Positions 11,551-58,012 of a stretch of DNA of 64,000 nucleotides are shown here, piece after piece. The translations under genes were made by a program, and so were the position numbers. Below the pieces are notes generated by a model. That model had not been told where the DNA came from. It did no database searches and saw only the letters and a list, made by a program, of their open reading frames with translations. Source of the stretch: Mobula hypostoma (lineage: Eukaryota); NCBI RefSeq assembly GCF_963921235.1, contig NC_086107.1:97528001-97592000 (forward strand). Direction: 5' to 3'. The first letter of the stretch is position 1, and every line of letters begins with the position of its first letter.

Positions 11551-12359
11551 CTCACGTGACGTTGTTTCCAGTGTTCCCAGTCCAAGCAGCCTGAGCAGGG
11601 GAGGTGAGGAGCCAGCAGCATCTTAACGGGTTTTTTTTTGTTTGCAGGTATATGAGAGAAGCAGGTTGTTGTGGAGCCGCTATTTTGGGTGGTGGGGGTG
11701 TGTGGGTGATCAAGTTTGAGTTGCAAGTGCAATGATTCGATATAGTGCTGAGGCTTTGATCTGAGAGCATCAAAAACACTCTGATATGGCCCAAGCACAG
11801 ACACTGAAGTGGGTCAACAGTTCACTGACTTTAATGAGAACAGTTGCAGAATTTAGATGAAAAGAAGAGCAACACACTCTAGGCCAACAGGATGGTTAAC
11901 TAAAACTCTCAAACTGAAAGTTAGCGCCAACACTGGTGCCGGAACCAATAACTGATTGCAAAATGAATACGGCTCCTTTACAGCGTCTGTCAAAAGGGTA
12001 GTCCTCCTTCCTGAACAAGGCTGAAGGTAAGCAGGGAGCATAAAAGTTGCTGTGCTTTTGGTCAAGTGTCAACAGGACTGGAGCAAAAAGGGAGATAAAT
12101 ACCGCATTAACGAAACTGTATTTCGCTGGAACTTTCCAACTCAGGAGCGCAACTGTCGAACCTGTTCCGCAGCCCGCCTGCGCGGGCACGTAGACCCCAC
12201 AGCAGAGTCCGTGGCTGTGACAGAGAGGTTTCGGTTAGAGCAATCTGAGCAGCGAAATTGGGTAAGTGCAGGTAGTTCCTTAGAATTACGCTGCCAGTTA
12301 AGCCGGGGTGCCAGTCGTGGCAGTAGGTGTGTGGGGGGATCAATGTTCCTGATAATTTA

Positions 12360-13850
12360 ACCTGTAGGATGTGCATCTGGCTGATCTCTTTAGGAAATGG
12401 AGCTGGAGATGGATATACTGAGGAATGTCCGGGAAGCTGAGATCACCTTTGACAAGAGGTGGTCACACCTAAGGTGCAGGCAGTAGATAGTTGGTTGACC
12501 ACAAGGAAAGGTAGAGGGAGCAGGCAGGTTCCCGTGTGGCCATCCCCCCTCAGCAACAAATATACCCCTTTGGATACCACGGTAGGGGGGCATGGCATGA
12601 CCTCGGAGGGAGAAGATGGTGGCGTGACGCAGCCTGCGCGGCCGTTCCAAATTGATATCGTATGTGTGAAGTAGGAAGCCGTGCACAATCCGGATTTGAT
12701 GGAGACAGCCGTGAGAAGCACGGAGGAACATCTGGAGTAACTTCTGAAATGCCCGCTTCGCTGCCGCTGCTACTGTGCGATCGAGAATCTCCGGAGGGGA
12801 AGGCCCCAAATCCTCGGCTTTGCCTATTGCCTGTTGCTGGGGCCGGGGTCGAAGCACTCGGCAGAGCTGGTGCTCGGTGCTCGGTGTCGGAGAGCTGGTT
12901 GGAGGCTCGGAGCTTTCGGACAGACTCGGAGTCGGACTGTGGTCGGATGCTTCCAGGATGCTGCATCGGCAAGTTTGCGGCGCTGGAGGTTCACCGTCTG
13001 CGTGAGATGACGGGACTTTCGAGCGACTCTGAGACTTTACCGTGCCCATGGTCTGTTCTTAACAAATTACGGTATTGCTTTGCACTGTTGTAACTATATG
13101 TTATAATTATGTGTTTTTTGTCAATTTTTCAGTCTTGGTTTGTCATGTGTTTGTGTGATATCATTCTGGAAAAACATTGTATCATTTCTTAATGCATGCA
13201 TTACTAAATGACAATAAAAGAGGACTGAGTGTCCTCATATTCTAATCTAATCACCTCTTGGGTGTACAGCAGCAGTAGGCAGAGCAGTAGCACTGAGGCT
13301 CAGTGGGGGTGGATTCAGGTGGAACAATAGTGATAAGAGACTCGATAGTTCCGGGGGAGGGTCTGGGCCAGCAAAAGAGTCGTCAGGATGGTGCGCTGCC
13401 ACCCTAGCTCCAGAGCCGAGGGTATCTCAGAGTGCCCGCAGGACACGCTCAGAAAGGGAGGGTGAGCATCAAGAGGTGGAGGTGCACACGGGCACCGTTT
13501 ACGCAGGTAGAAAGGGGGAAGAGATCCTGCGCAGAGAGTATAGGGAGTCAGAGAGGAGACTGAAGTGGACCTTGATCTTTGTAATCTCTGGATCACCCCA
13601 GTGGCCACGTGCTAGTCTGGGCAGGAACAGAAAGATAAATGAGTGGCTGAGGAACTGGTGCTTCAGGTCCTTAGGTCATTGGAGCTCTTCTGGGGAAGGG
13701 ATGTCCTATACAACAGGAACGGGCTAGGCCTTAACTGGAGCGGATCTGATATCCCGGCTAAGGGGTTAGCTGCTTCCTCTACTGAGTTTGGCAGGGGAAT
13801 GGGAGCCACAGGCCAGAATACAGATGGACTGGGAGGAAGGTAGATGTCAT
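12360..13850 (+). mobile_element. Old CR1 ORF1 remnant interrupted by a younger non-autonomous non-LTR element (about 12605-13252)
   Basis: Degenerate CR1 ORF1/esterase similarity. The insert starts gggagaagatggtggcg and ends aataaa...(ctaat)n, with acctc on both sides. Confidence 0.55.
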
Positions 13851-41000: not shown

Positions 41001-44000
41001 ATAGTCTTCTTAGCTACTGCCAATGCAATTTTTATAAATTCTTTCTGATATTTATTCAATTTAAGTTTCGGTTTTATCCCTTCAATATCACCTAATAGAA
41101 ATAATACAGGGTTATGTGGAAGTTGAGTTCCAGTAATTTGTTCCAATAAGACTCTTAAATTTATCCAAAAGGGTTGAATTTTAAAACAAGACCAAGTAGA
41201 ATGTAAAAAAGTACCAATTTCTTGATTACACCGAAAGCATTTATCAGATAGATTTGAATTTAATCTATTTATTTTTTGTGGTGTAATATATAATTGGTGT
41301 AAAAAATTATATTGTACTAATCTAAGTCGAACATTTATTGTATTTGTCATACTGTCAAGACAGAGTCTTGACCAATTTGTTTCATCAATATTAATATTCA
41401 AATCTGTTTCCCATTTTTGCATTGACTTATGGGTTCCTTGTTTAATTGTCTGTTCTTGAATCAAATTATACATACAAGAAATAAATTTTTTAATTTTCCC
41501 TTTTTGAATTAAAATTTCAATTTCATTAGGTTTTGGCAAAAACATTGTTTGACCCAGCTTACCTTTTAAGTAAGCCCTTAATTGAAGGTAACAAAAGAAA
41601 GTATTATTAGATATTTTATATTTATCCTTTAATTGTTCAAATGACATCAATATACCTCGTTCAAAACAATCTCCTATAAATTTAATCCCTTTTTGGTACC
41701 AATTATATAAAAGTTGATTGTCCATTGTAAAAGGAATAAGTCTGTTTTGAAACAAAGGTCTCCTTGCTAATAGAGATTTCTGTGTTTCATTATCATCATT
41801 TATCTTATTCCATAAATCAATCAAATGTGTTAATATAGGAGATTCTTTCTTTTCCCGTATCCATTTAGATTCCCATTTATATATAAAATCTTCAGGTTCA
41901 TTTTCTCCTATCTTGTCTAGTTCTATTTTAATCCATGCTGGTTTTTGATCATCGAAGAAAGATGCAATAAATCTAAGTTGATTTGCTTTATAATAGTTTT
42001 TAAAGTTTGGAAGTTGTGACCCTCCTAACCTAAATTTACATGTCAGTTTTTCCAATGATATTCTTGACATTTTACCTTTCCAAAGAAATTTTCTCACACA
42101 TTTATTTAACTCTTGAAAAAATTTGTGTGGCAATTGTATTGGTAATGTTTGAAACAAATACTGTAATCTAGGAAATATATTAATTTTTACAACATTGACT
42201 CTACCTACTAATGTTATTGGTAGTATCATCCATTTGTCAAAATCTTCTTGAATTTTTTTCAACAGCGGTAAATAATTAAATTTATATAAATTCTTTACAT
42301 CATTATCAAGTCTTATACCTAAATACTTTATACCATTTACCGGCCATCTAAATTGGGTTACTAATCGACATTGACTATAGTCTCCTTTAGTAAGAGGTAA
42401 AATTTCACTTTTATCCCAATTTATTTTGTAACCTGATACCTTCCCATATTCATCCAATCTAGAAGATAGTTTATGTAACGAATGTTGTGGGTTTGTTAAA
42501 TAAATCAAAACATCATCGGCAAAAAGATTAATTTTTTATTCCTCCTGATTAACTCTAAAACCCATAATATCTGGATCAATTCTGATTAGTTCTGCTAATG
42601 GCTCTATCGCCAGTACAAATAAAGCAGGTGATAATGGACAACCTTGTCTAGTTGACCTTTTTAACTGAAATGGTGTTGAAATTTGAGAATTTGTCACTAC
42701 TTTAGCTTTAGGGTTAGAATTTAAAGTTTTAATCCAATTTATAAAAGATGTTCCTAACCCATATTTTTCTAATACTTTAAATAAAAAATCCCATTCTAAT
42801 CTATCAAATGCTTTTTCTGCATCCAAAGCTACTACTATGCTCTTCTCATCCCTTTTCTGTGCCAAATGAATTATACTGAGTAGCCGGGTTACATTATCTG
42901 CCAATTGTCTATTTTTAATAAATCCTGTTTGATCCATATGTATTAATTTTGGTAAATATTTAGATAATCTATTCGATAAAATTTTTGCTATTATTTTATA
43001 ATCTGTATTCAATAAAGAAATAGGCCTGTATGATGTTGGTTTCATAGGGTCTCTGTCTTTTTTTGGCAATACTATTACAATCGCTGTTGAAAAAGATTCT
43101 GGAAGTTTATGTATTTTTTCTGCTCGACGTATTAGTTCCATAAAAAGAGGAAATAATAAATCTTTAAATTTTTTATAAAATTCAGGTGGAAAACCATCTT
43201 CTCCTGGAGATTTATTACTTTGGAGTGATCCTAAAGCTTCTTCAACTTCTTTTAATGTAAAAGGCATATCTAATCCCTTCTGTTCTTCCAAATTCAATTT
43301 TGGAAGAGAAATTTGTGATTAAAAACCTTTCTATCTCATTAACATCATTTTGGGATTCTGATTGATATAAATCAGAATAGAAATTTTTAAAAGTTTCATT
43401 TATTTCAAGAGGTTTATAAGATATTTTATTTGCCCTTGTTCTAATTGCATTTATTGTTTTGGAAGCTTGTTCTGTTTTCAACTGCCAGGCAAGAATTTTA
43501 TGTGCTCTCTCACCTGACTCATAATACCTTTGTTTAGTTCTTATAATTGCTTTTTCTGTTCTATATGTCTGAAGCGTATTATATTGTAACTTATTATTAA
43601 CAAGTTGTCTTCGTTTTTCTTCTGACATATATCTTTGAGATTCTTTTTCTATTTTTGTAATCTCTTTTTCCAATTGATCTAGTTCTGCCATATATTCTTT
43701 CTTAATTTTAGACGTATAACTTATCATCTGGCCCCTAAGATATGCTTTCATCGCATCCCATAATATAAATTTATCATCCACTGAATGAAAATTTGTATCC
43801 AAAAAGAATTGAATCTGCTTTTTCATAAAATGACAGAAATCTTGACGTTTTAATAATGTTGAATTAAATCTCCATCTATAAGCCACTTCTTCCTTATCAG
43901 CCATTATTATTGTCATTAATAAAGGGGAATGATCTGATAATGTTCTTGCTTTATATTCCATATTTTTCACTCTGTGTTGAATATGCATTGATAATAGAAA

Positions 44001-47000: not shown

Positions 47001-50000
47001 GGGGCTCGAGTGCAGCAGCTGACACCACAGTGCCATTCTCCCGATCTACTGACCGCCACTGATCCAACACCCACCTGTTCTGTCTGTGGGATCTTTCTAT
47101 GTATAAAATGCTTCCTGTCGCTGACAGTGGATGTAGTTCAGGGTGTTTGGACCGAGAGTGTCACGAGAGGGAAAGAAGAGACCTTTCTACTGAGTTGGTC
47201 CGATAATTGTCAGTGATTATACAGCTTCGCTCTCTCCCTGGTTGATTCATGTCACAACCTGACAGGCTTTGCACTGACCTGAGATGCCAAACCTGGATTG
47301 CACTGCAGAAACAGGTGAGACAAACCAGAGACAGCCACCCCCCTCCGGCAGCATCTCCTTAAAGAAAGGGTGACAGTTTGTGTTCTGTCTGCAGGCCCGA
47401 GAGCTTTGAGAACCCTGTGATTCAGAAGCACTTCCGCAATCTGGAGGCACTGGCGCTCGATTTAGAGGAACCAGAAGAAATGGAGGACCTGACACGTGAG
47501 TTGTTGAGCTCCTAGCGGGAGGAGTTATACATGACACTGCAGGTGCAGACCAAGCACACTAAATCTATCAGTCTGATTTAGGGTTAGCTAGATATTCGGC
47601 CCATTAGCCACTATTCTAGCTACTGACGCGTGTTCCTTGTGGGCGGGCTATCTGATTTGGATGGCAAGATGGAGATACGTCTCCACCAAAGGAAGTGTAA
47701 GGAACTCCTTCCCCGTATTGGCCTGCAGAGTCACCCTTGGGCAAGGTGTAGCACCTACTTCCCACCCCAACTAGGGTCATGTGAAGCCATGGAAGCAGGT
47801 GGTGGATGGTCATATGAGCAGCTGGTGCATATCACAGGTCCTGGTTATGTGACCACTGACACCAGGTGGATAATCTTTGAAGAATATTGATAATGGCTGG
47901 GGTAACCTGCCTTGTAAGTATACCGCCAGGAAGAATGGCAAACCACTTCTGTAGAACAATTTGGTAAGCACCATCATGGTCATGGGACCATGAACGCCCA
48001 CCTCATACAAAACGGCACGTGATAATGATGTCATACAACATGGCACATGATGATGATGTATCTGGATAGTGGGTGAGGACTGGAAACGTAAACACGAGGA
48101 ATTCTGCAGATGCTGGAAATTCAAGCAACACATGTCAAAGTTGCTGGTGAACGCAGCAGGCCAGGCAGCATCTCTAGGAAGAAACATAGAAACATAGAAA
48201 ATAGGTGCAGGAGTAGGCCATTCGGCCCTTCGAGCCTGCACCGCCATTTATTATGATCATGGCTGATCATCCAACTCAGAACCCAGCCTTCCCTCCATAC
48301 CCCGTGACCCCTGTAGCCACAAGGGCCATATCTAACTTCCTTTTAAACATAGCTAATGAACTGGCCTCAACAGTTTGCTGTGGCAGAGAATTCCACAGAT
48401 TCACCACTCTCTGTGTGAAGAAGTTTTTCCTAACCTCGGTCCTAAAAGGCTTCCCCTCTATCCTCAAACTGTGACCCCTCGTTCTAGACCTCCCCAACAT
48501 CGGGAACAATCTTCCCGCATCTAGCCTGTCCAATCCCTTTAGGATCTTATACGTTTCAATCAGATCCCCCCTCAATCTTCTAAATTCCAACGAGTACAAG
48601 CCCAGTTCATCCAGTCTTTCTTCACATGAAAGACCTGCCATCCCAGGAATCAATCTGGTGAACCTTCTTTGTACTCCCTCTATGGCAAGGATGTCTTTCC
48701 TCAGATTAGGGGACCAAAACTGCACACAATACTCCAGGTGTGGTCTCACCAAGGCCTTGTACAACTGCAGTAGTACCTCCCTGCTCCTGTACTCGAATCC
48801 TCTCGCTATAAATGCCAGCATACCGTTCGCCTTTTTCACCGCCTGCTGTACCTGCATGCCCACTTTCAATGACTGGTGTATAATGACACCCAGGTCTCGT
48901 TGCACCTCCCCTTTTCCTAATCGGCCACCATTCAGATAATAATCTGTTTTCCTATTTTTGCCACCAAAGTGGATAACTTCACATTTATCCACATTAAATT
49001 GCATCTGCCATGAGTTTGCCCACTCACCCAACCTATCCAAGTCACCCTGCATCCTCTTAGCATCCTCCTCACTGCTAACACTGCCACCCAGCTTCGTGTC
49101 ATCCGCAAACTTGGAGATGCTGCATTTAATTCCCTCATCCAAGTCATTAATATATATTGTAAACAACTGGGGTCCCAGCACTGAGCCTTGCGGTACCCCA
49201 CTAGTCACCGCCTGCCATTCTGAAAAGGTCCCGTTTATTCCCACTCTTTGCTTCCTGTCTGCTAACCAATTCTCCACCCACACCAATACCTTACCCCCAA
49301 TACCATGTGCTTTAAGTTTGCACACTAATCTCCTGTGTGGGACCTTGTCAAAAGCCTTTTGAAAATCCAAATATACCACATCCACTGGTTCTCCCCTATC
49401 CACTCTACTAGTTACATCCTCAAAAAATTCTATGAGATTCGTCAGACATGATTTTCCTTTCACAAATCCATGCTGACTTTGTCCGATCATTTCACCGCTT
49501 TCCAAATGTGCTGTTATCACATCCTTGATAACTGACTCCAGCAGTTTCCCCACCACCGACGTTAGGCTAACCGGCCTATAATTCCCCGGTTTCTCTCTCC
49601 CTCCTTTTTTAAAAAGTGGGGTTACATTAGCCACCCTCCAATCCTCAGGAACTAGTCCAGAATCTAACGAGTTTTGAAAAATTATCACTAATGCATCCAC
49701 TATTTCTTGGGCCACTTCCTTAAGCACTCTGGGATGCAGACCATCTGGCCCTGGGGATTTATCTGCCTTCAATCCCTTCAATTTACCTAACACCACTTCC
49801 CTACTAACATGTATTTCGCTCAGTTCCTCCATCTCACTGGACCCTCTGTCCCTTACTATTTCTGGAAGATTATTTATGTCCTCCTTAGTGAAGACAGAAC
49901 CAAAGTAATTATTCAATTGGTCTGCCATGTCCTTGCTCCCCATAATCAATTCACCTGTTTCTGTTTGCAGGGGACCTACATTTGTCTTTATCAGTCTTTT

Positions 50001-53000
50001 CCTTTTTACATATCTATAAAAGCTTTTACAGTCCGTTTTTATGTTCTCTGCCAGTTTTCTCTCATAATCTTTTTTCCCCTTCCTAATTAAGCCCTTTGTC
50101 CTCCTCTGCTGAACTCTGAATTTCTCCCAGTCCTCAGGTGAGCCACTTTCTCTGGCTAATTTGTATGCTACTTCTTTGGAATTGATACTATCCCTAATTT
50201 CTCTTGTCAGCCACGGGTGCACTACCTTCCTTGATTTATTCTTTTGCCAAACTGGGATGAACAATTGTTGTAGTTCATCCATGCAACCTTTAAATGCCTG
50301 CCATTGCATATCCACCGTCAATCCTTGAAGTGTCATTTGCCAGTCTATCTTAGCTAATTCATGTCTCATACCTTCAAAGTTACCCCTCTTTAAGTTCAGA
50401 ACCTTTGTTTCTGAATTAACTACGTCACTCTCCATGTTAATGAAGAATTCCACCATATTATGGTCACTCTTACCCAAGGGGCCTCTCACGACAAGATCGC
50501 TAATTAACCCTTCCTCATTGCTCAAAACCCAGTCCAGAATAGCCTGCTCTCTAGTCGGTTCCTCAACATGTTGGTTCAAAAAACCATCCCGCATACATTC
50601 CAAGAAATCCTCTTCCTCAGCACCTTTACCAATTTGGTTCACCCAGTCTACATGTAGATTGAAGTCACCCATTATAACTGCTGTTCCTTTATTGCACACA
50701 TTTCTAATTTCCTGTTTAATACCATCTCCGACCTCACTACTACTGTTAGGTGGCCTGTACACAACTCCCACCAGCGTCTTCTGCCCCTTAGTGTTACGCA
50801 GCTCTACCCATATCGATTCCACATCTTCCCGGCTTATGTCCTTCCTTTCTATTGCGTTAATCTCTTTTTTAACCAGCAACGCCACCCCACCTCCCCTTCC
50901 TTCATGTCTATCCCTCCTGAATATTGAATATCCCTGAACGTTGAGCTCCCATCCCTGGTCACCCTGGAGCCATGTCTCTGTGATCCCAACTATATCATAA
51001 TCATTAATAACAATCTGCACTTTCAATTCATCCACCTTATTACGAATGCTCCTTGCATTGACACATAAAGCCTTCAGGCGCTCTTTTACAACTCTCTTAG
51101 CCCTTTTTAATGCTTGCCCTGGATTTGTCGGCCTGCCACTTTTACTTTTCCCCTTTGTACTTTTTGCTTCTACGCTCACTTTACACCCCTCTGTCTCTCT
51201 GCACTGGTTCCCATCCCTCTGTTGTGAACTAACCTCCTCACACCTAGCCGCTTTAATTTGATTCCCACCCCCCAACCATTCTAGTTTAAAGTCACCTCAG
51301 TAGCCCCCGCTAATCTCCCTGCCAGGATATTGGTCCCCCTAGGATTTAAGTGTAACCCGTCCTTTTTGTACAGGTCACACCTACGCCAAAAGAGGTCCCA
51401 ATGATCCAAAAACTTGAATCCCTGCCCCCTGCTCCAATCCCTCAGCCACGCATTTATCCTCCACCTCATCGCATTCCTACTCTCACTGTCGCGTGGCACA
51501 GGCAGTAATCCCGAGATTACTACCTTTGCGGTCCTTTTTCTCAACTCCCTTCCTAGCTCCCTATATTCTTCTTTCAGGAAGAGGTACAGTCGAGGTTTCA
51601 GGCCGAGACCCTTCGTCAGGACTAACTGAAGGAAGAGCTAGTAAGAGATTTGAAAGTGGGAGGGGGAGGGGGAGATCCAAAATGATAGGAGAAGACAGGA
51701 GGGGGAGGGATGGAGCTAAGAGCTGGACAGGTGATTGGCAAAAGGGATATGAGAGGATACTGGGACAGGAGGCCTAGGGAGAACGACAAGGGGGAGGGGG
51801 GGAAGCCCAGAGGATGGGCAAGGGGTATAGTCAGAGGGACAGAGGGAGAAAAAGGAGAGTGAGAGAAAGAATGTGTGTATATAAATAAATAACGGATGGG
51901 GTACGAGGGGGAGGTGGGGCATTAGCAGAAGTTAGAAAAGTCAATGTTCATGCCATCAGGTTGGAGGCTACCCAGACAGAATATAAGGTGTTGTTCCTCC
52001 AACCTGAGTGTGGCTTCATCTTTACAGTAGAGGAGGCCGTGGATAGACATGTCAGAATGGGAATGGGACGTGGTTTTGGTTCTGTGTGGGTAGATAGATG
52101 CTGCCAAGCAAACTGAGCTTGTGGTTATCTACAGAAGGATAAAATTCTAACAGCCCAAGAGCAAATTGATATCCTTCCTTGTATCCTATAATAAACTATC
52201 ATGTATTATCCATCTGCCTCCCCCCACTCCCCCCAGTTAGTTGTTGTGTGATCCTGCAGCCGTGGGAAGGCCTCCTGCCCGGTGAACCTGCACAACTTGT
52301 CTTCTCTTGCACTTTGGTTGTTTGTCAGTCTTTGTCTGTTTATTTACAGTTATTGTACAATTGTTTTGTTTTCCTTGCAGGAAAATGAATCTGAATTTAG
52401 TATATGGTAATACATACGTACTTCGATCTTTAGAAAAATACTTTAAACTTTGAATAACCTGCCTCCATTATTTCAGCAAGCTTTTCTCCCAACCATGCCT
52501 GAGTCACCCAGCTCAGGGTGGGATGGGGTAGATGTTCTGGTCCTCAGCAAAGCGCACTGTGTATAATTGGAACAAAACCCTGTCTGTTACTCTTCCAGTG
52601 CCAAAGAACAATGTGATAGATGAGAGAATCGGCCAGCTGGCTGAGGAATTCACGAGTCTGGTTTATCCTCCTGACTACAACCCCAACGCAAAGGGCCAGC
52701 AGAAGAGGAAGCTGGGTGAGTTTCCACAGAATGAATATGCCGGGCTGTAGTTTAGAACGGGAGCGCACACACAAGGAAGACCCCTGACAACTGACAGAAG
52801 TGCCTCTCGCTATCTGAGCACTGCCAGACCGTTAGCTGCTCTTACAACATGGGAACTGTGATGGCCAATCGGTGCACAGCAGGATCCCACCAGCACCAGG
52901 TACTGACCAGTGATATCAGCTGAGGATGGATATTGGCCCACAGCCCTGCTTCTCTTCAGATGCTTTGGGATCATCTGACGGAAGAATTAGGGTGTTGGCT

Positions 53001-56989: not shown

Positions 56990-58012
56990 CAGATCCCTCT
57001 ACAAGCCATGATAGCCTTGCTTGCTGTCCACTACACCCCTAATCTTGGCGTCATCCACAAATTTGCTGGTCCAGTTAACCACATTATCATCCAGATCATC
57101 AATTATAGATAACAAACAACAAAGGACCCAGCACCGATCCCCCATCTGTTTTAGCTCCACATCTGGATTACCATTTTGATCTTCCAGAGGACCAACTTTG
57201 TCCCTTGCAATACCTTTGCTCTTAACATATCTGTAGAATTCCTTGGGATTCTCTTTCACCTTGTCTGCTCTGGAAACCTCATGCCTTCTTTTAGCCCTCC
57301 TGATTTCACTCAGGTGTTCTCTTGCATTTCTTATACTCCATAAGCATTTTATTTCTCCTTTGCTACCTATGCCTGATATGCACCTCCTTACTTTCCTTAA
57401 CCAGAGCCTCAATATCTCTCCGAAACCAAGGTACCCTACACTTGTTACCTTTTTACCTTTTATTCTGACAGGCACATACAAACTTTGTACATTCAAAATT
57501 TCCCTTTTGCATGCCTCCCACTTACCAAGTATGTCTTTGGCAGAAAATGATCTGTCCCAATCCACACTTGCCAGATCATTTCTGATACCATCAAAATTGG
57601 CCTTTCTCTAATTTAGAATCTCAACCCGCAGACCAGACCTATCCCTTTGCATATTTACTTTGAAACTAATGGCATTGTGGTCACTGGATGCAAAATGTTC
57701 CCATACAAAAACTTCTGTCACCCGCCCTGTCTCATTCCCTAATAGCAGATCCAGTATCACACACGCTGTCATTGGGATATCCATGTACTGATAAAGGAAA
57801 CTTTCCTGAACACATTTGACAAACTCTATCCTATCCAGTCCTTTTACAGAATGGGATTCCCCGTCAATATGTGAAAAATAAAATCGCCTACTGTAACAAC
57901 TTCATGTTTCTTGTAGCAGTCTGTGATCTCTCTACAAATTTGTTCCTCTAAGTCCCTAGGTCTGTTGGGTGATCTGTAATATAGTCCCATTATATGTGGT
58001 CATACCTTTCTT
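56990..58012 (-). mobile_element. Degenerate CR1 ORF2 fragment with internal deletion
   Basis: Frames KENPKEFYRYVKSK and SKFVDDAKI. Confidence 0.8.

Follow-up and report, generated by a model that had tools for sequence, protein, structure and literature searches.

At the frameshift site of Rous sarcoma virus, the gag stop codon adjoins the slippery heptamer and is followed by a G-rich stretch. Here we compare such sites with the junction between the first and second open reading frames (ORF1 and ORF2) of a CR1 long interspersed nuclear element (LINE) from the ray Mobula hypostoma. The element lies on the minus strand of a 64,000-nucleotide (nt) stretch of contig NC_086107.1 (assembly GCF_963921235.1, positions 97,528,001 to 97,592,000), which we call the window and whose own numbering is used throughout. 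Like coronaviral and retroviral -1 frameshift sites, the CR1 junction carries an X_XXY_YYZ heptamer in phase with the upstream frame, in this case the U_UUA_AAC of coronaviruses, and a short overlap between an upstream gene for a structural or RNA-binding protein and a downstream gene for a polymerase. It differs from these sites in that it belongs to a retrotransposon without long terminal repeats (a non-LTR element), has a G tract in place of a pseudoknot or stable hairpin, and is known from its sequence alone.

Several other systems invite comparison. In SART1, a LINE of the R1 clade, a UAAUG stop-start overlap is reported to drive translational coupling, and a downstream structure is said to matter (PMC3708506, PMC3894237). 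SART1 resembles the ray CR1 in that ORF2 lies in another frame and that stop and restart fall within a few nt, and shark CR1s share its UAAUG; the ray CR1 family differs in having no in-frame AUG at the stop and a slippery heptamer directly before it. Human L1 ORF2 is likewise translated without need of its AUG (PMC5009743, PMC1965478), but the two L1 ORFs are separated by a spacer and do not overlap, and the available parts of these papers describe no slippery heptamer at the end of L1 ORF1. On UUUAAAC, -1 frameshifting in reticulocyte lysate rose from 0.4% to ~7% when a G-quadruplex followed the heptamer at a distance of 5-8 nt, and spacers of 6-8 nt worked best (PMC3919603). The window has the same heptamer and a 6-nt spacer, whereas those constructs were three-tier and the CR1 tract is predicted to allow two tiers only. 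Reviews of LINE translation, in the parts available, treat translation of the second ORF in bicistronic LINEs as an open question, and the accessible part of a 2016 frameshifting review lists HeT-A, TART and L1 as the only non-LTR elements. Our full-text literature search returned no paper linking CR1, or the ORF1/ORF2 junction of any vertebrate LINE, to a slippery site; an earlier remark in the primary CR1 papers (1997-2003) or in the SART1 paper is possible.

Against this background we describe a junction whose heptamer, stop codon and G tract are kept deep in the CR1 group, and we think it somewhat probable that they form a clade-wide -1 frameshift signal through which ORF1p and ORF2p would be made as a fusion.

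Anatomy of the ORF1/ORF2 junction

From 51304 to 51281 the minus strand reads GCT ACT GAG GTG ACT TTA AAC TAG, and it continues AAT GGT TGG GGG GTG GGA. A first-pass annotation, made from the letters of the window, had pointed to this ORF1 tail and to a phase-exact T TTA AAC at 51290-51284, and direct reading confirms both: the heptamer (51284-51290) is in exact X_XXY_YYZ phase with ORF1, and the ORF1 stop TAG (51281-51283), which is TAG, TAA or TGA in relatives, adjoins it. The TGA that closes the -1 frame (51297-51299, three codons 5' of the heptamer) and the overlap of 13 nt between ORF1 and ORF2, counted to the final ORF1 sense codon, were also correctly described. Read in the -1 frame, the junction is GGT GAC TTT AAA CTA GAA TGG TTG GGG GGT GGG AAT, and this frame stays open as ORF2 (48276-51296, minus strand), whose 1006 codons agree with the roughly 1000 first estimated and encode a linker, an APE endonuclease and a reverse transcriptase (RT). 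Two features of a canonical -1 signal are present in the window, namely an in-phase X_XXY_YYZ heptamer and a downstream ORF that is open across it in the -1 frame. The start codon expected for UAAUG-type coupling is absent, with no AUG of the ORF2 frame at the ORF1 stop.

ORF2 contains no in-frame ATG for 208 codons, although its endonuclease domain begins near codon 74-93. The first one, codon 209 (50670-50672, minus strand), falls within the Exo_endo_phos match (residues 93-279), so the early claim that no in-frame ATG occurs until 50672, inside the endonuclease, holds. An ATG closely 3' of the ORF1 stop (51277-51279, minus strand) belongs to the third frame, which meets a stop after 8 codons; the first near-cognate start of the ORF2 frame past the stop is a UUG (51273-51275, minus strand), which matters for reinitiation only. 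The G-rich tract GGTTGGGGGGTGGG (= GGUUGGGGGGUGGG; 51264-51277, minus strand) begins 6 nt past the heptamer. With both strands counted, the window has 16 occurrences of TTTAAAC, about one per 8,000 positions, so that a heptamer at exactly this phase and place would be a roughly 1-in-8,000 event by chance. The 23-nt junction itself is unique within the window (expectation 0, from 100 shuffles).

The first-pass annotation had offered the G tract as a possible G-quadruplex or stem stimulator. The tract and its spacing stand, and ViennaRNA with its G-quadruplex option predicts a two-tier quadruplex at +6 nt in the window and at +11 nt in a bird-type relative, L001, described below. A hairpin or pseudoknot as stimulator was considered for the window and rejected (z -0.53 against shuffled controls).

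Conservation of the junction in CR1 relatives

A profile search of metagenome contigs with the ORF1 protein gave two loci, L001 and L002. L001 is a bird-type CR1: its ORF2 N-terminus matches proteins whose names assign them to stork, godwit, swallow, pigeon and turkey. Its ORF1 and that of the ray share 36% identity. At its junction, which reads GCT TTA AAC TAG gt ATG AAG GGG GGT GGG GGT, the heptamer keeps the phase of the ORF1 tail (...RALN); the ORF1 of this copy is broken by a 1-nt indel ~10 codons further upstream. The L001 ORF2, which uses the -1 frame (S F K L...), is open for at least 797 codons and is closed 2 codons 5' of the heptamer. When window and L001 are aligned, CTTTAAACTAG is identical at 11/11 positions and GGGGGGTGGG at 10/10, with diverged flanks. 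L002 is a decayed relative of L001 with TTTAAAG CAG and a broken ORF2, and neither supports nor contradicts the pattern. Neither the ORF1 profile nor the junction pattern had a match among viral contigs. The sole genome-contig match, L003 from an actinobacterial metagenome-assembled genome (30% identity over 104 residues), was set aside as an ordinary bacterial GDSL protein. A search with the ORF2 N-terminus gave only 2 matches, distant, AT-rich and invertebrate-like, and annotated ray ORF2 proteins evidently do not include this N-terminal region.

A broader comparison is offered by published consensus sequences, of which we searched the first 400 nt of each CR1-group entry in the available part of Supplementary Table 2 of PMC13343379, judging frames and motif placement by eye only. 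The heptamer followed by TAG (TTTAAACTAG) gave 12 matches, 11 of them at the ORF1 end; with TAA (TTTAAACTAA) 6 of 8 matches lay there, and with TGA (TTTAAACTGA) 1 of 3. This makes 18 consensus sequences in which ORF1 closes with heptamer and stop, and they come from 12 species: halosaur (Crack clade), alligator, saltwater crocodile, bearded dragon, bullfrog, coelacanth, bowfin, elephant shark, dogfish, catshark, sawfish and stingray. A G-rich tract follows ~3-11 nt downstream (for example GGGGGATGGGG and GGGGAGGGG) in all 18 except the Crack element and SquAca_CR1-17a of dogfish. Conversely, when the G tract was used as the query, the heptamer or its visible part stood directly upstream in 9/9 CR1 matches; this search additionally matched two unrelated G-rich L2 5' regions. 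Inspected by eye, 8/18 have an in-phase ORF1 tail (such as ...LIRRALN, ...AVGEGLN and ...AVDRALN), two sequences allowed no phase call and one starts at the motif. In catshark CR1-1a and dogfish CR1-6c the -1 frame continues without a stop from the heptamer as far as the endonuclease motif, and in crocodile CR1-3a it is open for the 30 visible codons.

The same consensus set contains some unusual arrangements. SquAca_CR1-3 and SquAca_CR1-18 (dogfish) carry GGTTTAAACTA(G/A) in the 5' untranslated region, ~150 nt 5' of the ORF1 start, by chance or as a second copy of the motif. HypSab_CR1-13 (stingray) has GAA instead of a stop behind TTTAAAC, so that its ORF1 would extend by 17 codons; this sequence has many deletions relative to the window copy, and the GAA may be an artefact.

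Protein sequences extend the comparison to ORF1 C-termini. Searched with an ORF1 profile, a set of 1.84 billion representatives contained 5,647 matches at E <= 0.001, and the best 150 of these were fetched; 171 ORF1 homologues were collected in all, 115 with an intact tail. Among these 115, 79 end in N, 63 in LN and nine in GN, each of the nine as QGN. Word-indexed ORF1 matches had a recognisable tail in 20 of 22 cases, ending in LN (18), IN (1) or LNLNG (1). The 6-9 residues preceding LN are variable among homologues, and FKL (= TTT AAA CTN) appears in 3/3 bird proteins whose ORF2-frame reading extends through the junction. Moreover, the residue before LN is one that no NNU codon can encode in 1/63 tails (0/18 clusters), compared with 22/63 and 15/63 at the next two positions, a depletion that lends weak support to a conserved heptamer. 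The QGN-ending homologues are found among P0078-P0096, P0141 and P0151. If encoded as CAG GGA AAC, their tails would fit a different canonical slippery heptamer, G_GGA_AAC, at the same place; the predicted CAGGGAAAC with a stop gave 0 matches in the first 400 nt of the available consensus sequences (PMC13343379). Runs of RNA-like material (X6, X9, X11 and X12) contain 58-70% of the sampled words, and we base no claim about expression on them.

Taken across L001, the 8/18 phase-readable consensus sequences and the LN termini, the heptamer is conserved in phase among diverged relatives, synonymous positions included: TTA, AAC and the preceding T are kept despite 36% ORF1 identity, and the stop varies between TAG, TAA and TGA at a fixed position behind the heptamer. 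The first-pass annotation had proposed a comparison of junctions across CR1s, and the heptamer, stop and G tract proved to be kept in L001 and, by eye, in the 18 consensus sequences, with many ORF1s ending ...LN. It had also held that an AUG near the start of ORF2 would speak against a frameshift. Such an AUG exists in catshark, dogfish and some birds, and is lacking in the ray family and in crocodilians. In detail, UAAUG is found in the catshark CR1-1a and dogfish CR1-6c and CR1-17a consensus sequences and TAG-gt-ATG in L001, with this ATG as the start of two bird proteins (MKG...); V or S takes its place in other bird copies, and the AUG is the 4th codon of the -1 frame in sharks but the 5th in birds. 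An in-frame AUG at the stop is absent from the ray family of the window and from sawfish, stingray, chimaera, crocodilians, lizard, frog, bowfin and coelacanth (again within the available consensus sequences). Because the heptamer is found across lineages and the AUG only in some, we regard the heptamer as the constant and the AUG as the variable.

Proposed frameshifting and competing explanations

A -1 frameshift signal is the simplest account of this junction because a phase-exact heptamer, conserved at synonymous positions throughout the history of jawed vertebrates, a fixed stop, an ORF2 that opens in the -1 frame just upstream and a G tract at the distance of a stimulator occur together. 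Most ribosomes on ORF1, with its zinc-knuckle-like N-terminus, coiled coil and SGNH esterase, would decode UUA-AAC and terminate at the adjoining UAG. A small fraction would slip back by one base on U_UUA_AAC, with tRNA-Leu re-pairing from UUA to UUU and tRNA-Asn from AAC to AAA. These ribosomes would read on through CUA GAA UGG... and the linker into the endonuclease and reverse transcriptase, so that the product would be an ORF1p-ORF2p fusion made at a fixed low ratio, comparable to retroviral Gag-Pol. The pause that favours slippage could come from the adjoining stop codon, from the G-rich tract 6 nt downstream (possibly as a two-tier G-quadruplex), or from both. The anatomy of the junction, the lack of an AUG in this family and the deep conservation of heptamer, stop and G tract are seen in the sequences, and from there on slippage, its efficiency and a role for the G tract are inferred. 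We propose that this recoding signal is ancient in the CR1 group. The fuller statement, that CR1-group LINEs have made such a fusion on U_UUA_AAC since before cartilaginous and bony vertebrates split, stimulated by both the adjoining stop and a G-quadruplex, is one we put forward more tentatively, as slightly less likely than not. The interpretation of the first-pass annotation, that this CR1 makes its ORF2 product as a frameshift fusion, is partly supported.

Several observations weigh against frameshifting. No stable hairpin or pseudoknot was found past the site, the 124 nt downstream folding little better than shuffled sequences (z -0.53 in the window and -1.54 in L001). The G tract is predicted to allow a two-tier quadruplex only, and fewer quartets gave less frameshifting in the synthetic system (PMC3919603). 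In addition, the tract encodes Gly-rich residues of ORF2, so that constraint on the protein could explain it. A depletion of residues that NNU cannot encode, similar to that before LN, is seen at positions -7, -9 and -10 (4, 4 and 3 of 63). Seven of the 18 consensus sequences are 1-2 bases short upstream of the ORF1 tail and hence out of phase, at lower-case letters, and the -1 frame meets a stop before the endonuclease in AllMis-1b, AllMis-6a, LatCha-1, SquAca-17a, SquAca-22, PogVit-2 and CalMil-1b; by eye, we attribute both kinds of break to uncertain lower-case consensus letters, which may account for them. These 18 cases were, moreover, ascertained by a search for the motif itself, without a known denominator. 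Finally, sharks have UAAUG and human L1 ORF2 is translated independently of AUG, so that a missing AUG alone is no sufficient reason to invoke frameshifting.

The last point leads to termination-reinitiation, the main rival, which we regard as less likely than frameshifting but as a serious alternative. In this scheme the ribosome would terminate at the UAG of ORF1 without leaving the RNA and would resume nearby in the ORF2 frame to give a separate ORF2p. Restart would be at the AUG in sharks and birds and at a non-AUG codon such as the UUG at 51275-51273 in rays; the G tract would hold the ribosome, and the heptamer would be kept for some other reason. The UAAUG of catshark CR1-1a and dogfish CR1-6c and CR1-17a speaks for it, together with the ATG 2 nt past the stop of L001 at which the two MKG... 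proteins begin, and both kinds of start have precedents, UAAUG with downstream structure in SART1 (PMC3708506, PMC3894237) and AUG-independent initiation of ORF2 in L1 (PMC5009743, PMC1965478). The constant place of the ORF1 stop, important for coupling, is also in its favour. However, reinitiation leaves without reason a phase-exact X_XXY_YYZ heptamer that is kept at synonymous positions from chimaera to birds. The AUG that it would use in sharks and birds differs in position between them. Most lineages seen, among them a ray family of ~50,000 contigs per genome, either lack this AUG or have it in another frame, and the sole AUG near the stop of the window is the wrong-frame dead end of 8 codons. 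Elements that combine the heptamer with UAAUG or TAG-gt-ATG could also use both routes, frameshifting being ancestral and general and the lineages that gained an AUG (sharks and some birds) adding reinitiation, so that fused and free ORF2p would be made side by side. This compromise accommodates such elements, but it is a mere sum of two putative mechanisms and we consider it improbable.

It is more improbable still, to the point that we give it very little weight, that the heptamer has no translational role and is kept for a Leu-Asn C-terminus or another function of the DNA or RNA, such as packaging or recognition by the RT, with ORF2 translated from another RNA or by internal entry. LN is indeed the commonest ORF1 C-terminus (63/115), and positions -7, -9 and -10 appear constrained as well. 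Constraint on the protein does not, however, account for TTA out of the six Leu codons, for AAC instead of AAT or for the preceding T in every DNA example seen, and the tail right before LN is variable. No internal promoter or entry site is known.

The ray element, its family and the meaning of a possible fusion

The copy in the window is a 5'-truncated CR1 LINE of ~3.4 kb (48181-51579, minus strand), as delimited by Pfam matches, contigs and flanks, and is inserted in another, more abundant repeat. Its ORF1 remnant (51281-51579, minus strand) comprises the final 99 codons and the stop, and encodes the C-terminal half of an SGNH/GDSL esterase (PF13472, E 3.6e-9, profile positions 88-175 of 178). 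It is 99% identical to the tail of a 311-amino-acid protein named from Mobula hypostoma, and the full-length ORF1 relatives are of the same 311 amino acids with the same esterase domain. ORF2 matches PF03372/PF14529 at residues 93-282 and PF00078 at residues 566-783. At the 3' end Tandem Repeats Finder detects an octamer microsatellite (48180-48204, minus strand; unit ATGTTTCT on the element strand, 8 nt, 3.2 copies), a feature described as conserved in CR1 3' untranslated regions in the introduction of PMC4316615. The element therefore has the marks of the CR1 group, with APE and RT in ORF2, an esterase-type ORF1 and an octamer microsatellite, not poly-A, at its 3' end; by eye, its ORF1 tail and junction also resemble the sawfish and stingray consensus sequences named CR1 in the available part of PMC13343379. 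The original description of a CR1 with an esterase ORF1 and an APE/RT ORF2 is supported by the Pfam domains and the microsatellite, with the correction that ORF1 is present in this copy as a remnant of 99 codons only.

Contigs of other copies extend 5' of 51579 with the esterase block ...NDIGRKRDE, and contig depth is 5- to 20-fold higher at 51574-51650 than over the LINE. Positions 51580-51650 and 48100-48176 are the two halves of one other repeat that flanks the LINE, with 'ttcc' at both edges; this repeat (minus strand) is probably a family resembling short interspersed nuclear elements. The window copy is dead on arrival, truncated at about 51579, and because its ORF2 is nevertheless intact, the copy is young. 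Its family is large, with 55,666 contigs of one ray-like organism (A) and 46,810 of another (B) over a 701-nt stretch. None of the best 40 of 84 variant places (>=5% of depth) lies in the junction (51251-51306), which suggests but does not prove that the junction is invariant within the family; the window copy departs from the family majority at, for example, 51250, 51347 and 51383. A contig of 1,444 nt from organism D crosses the junction with 11 differences in 630 nt, and the 10 that are listed all lie outside 51251-51306.

A 27-nt insertion at 51099/51100, present in contigs from three other organisms and in a few from the source organism, by eye adds nine stop-free in-frame codons to the ORF2 linker 5' of the endonuclease. 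Such an in-frame insertion is consistent with a translated linker.

Elsewhere in the window, the remaining copies of the LINE are 3' fragments only. A second, decayed esterase-type ORF1 (12309-13690, plus strand) shares 41-51% identity with the ORF1s of rays and sharks. Its tail leads into ...ACTGAG TTTGGCAGGGGAATGGGAG, with neither a heptamer-stop stretch nor an ORF2 behind it, and is uninformative on the junction. Fragments of RT/APE elements at 42398-43234 and 57134-57871 (minus strand), 26-29% identical to the ORF2 of the window, belong to other LINE families.

In sharks, rays, crocodilians, turtles and birds, the dominant transposons are LINEs of the CR1 group. If the frameshift reading is true, they would provide a case of the Gag-Pol strategy in a LINE, together with a natural frameshift stimulator in the form of a G-quadruplex or G tract, and ORF2 expression would have a concrete mechanism that can be tested. 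It would also explain why annotated ray ORF2 proteins start within the endonuclease domain, and the junction would supply a simple annotation rule for joining CR1 ORFs. In addition, ORF1p would be physically tied to ORF2p, and the ratio between the two would be set by the junction.

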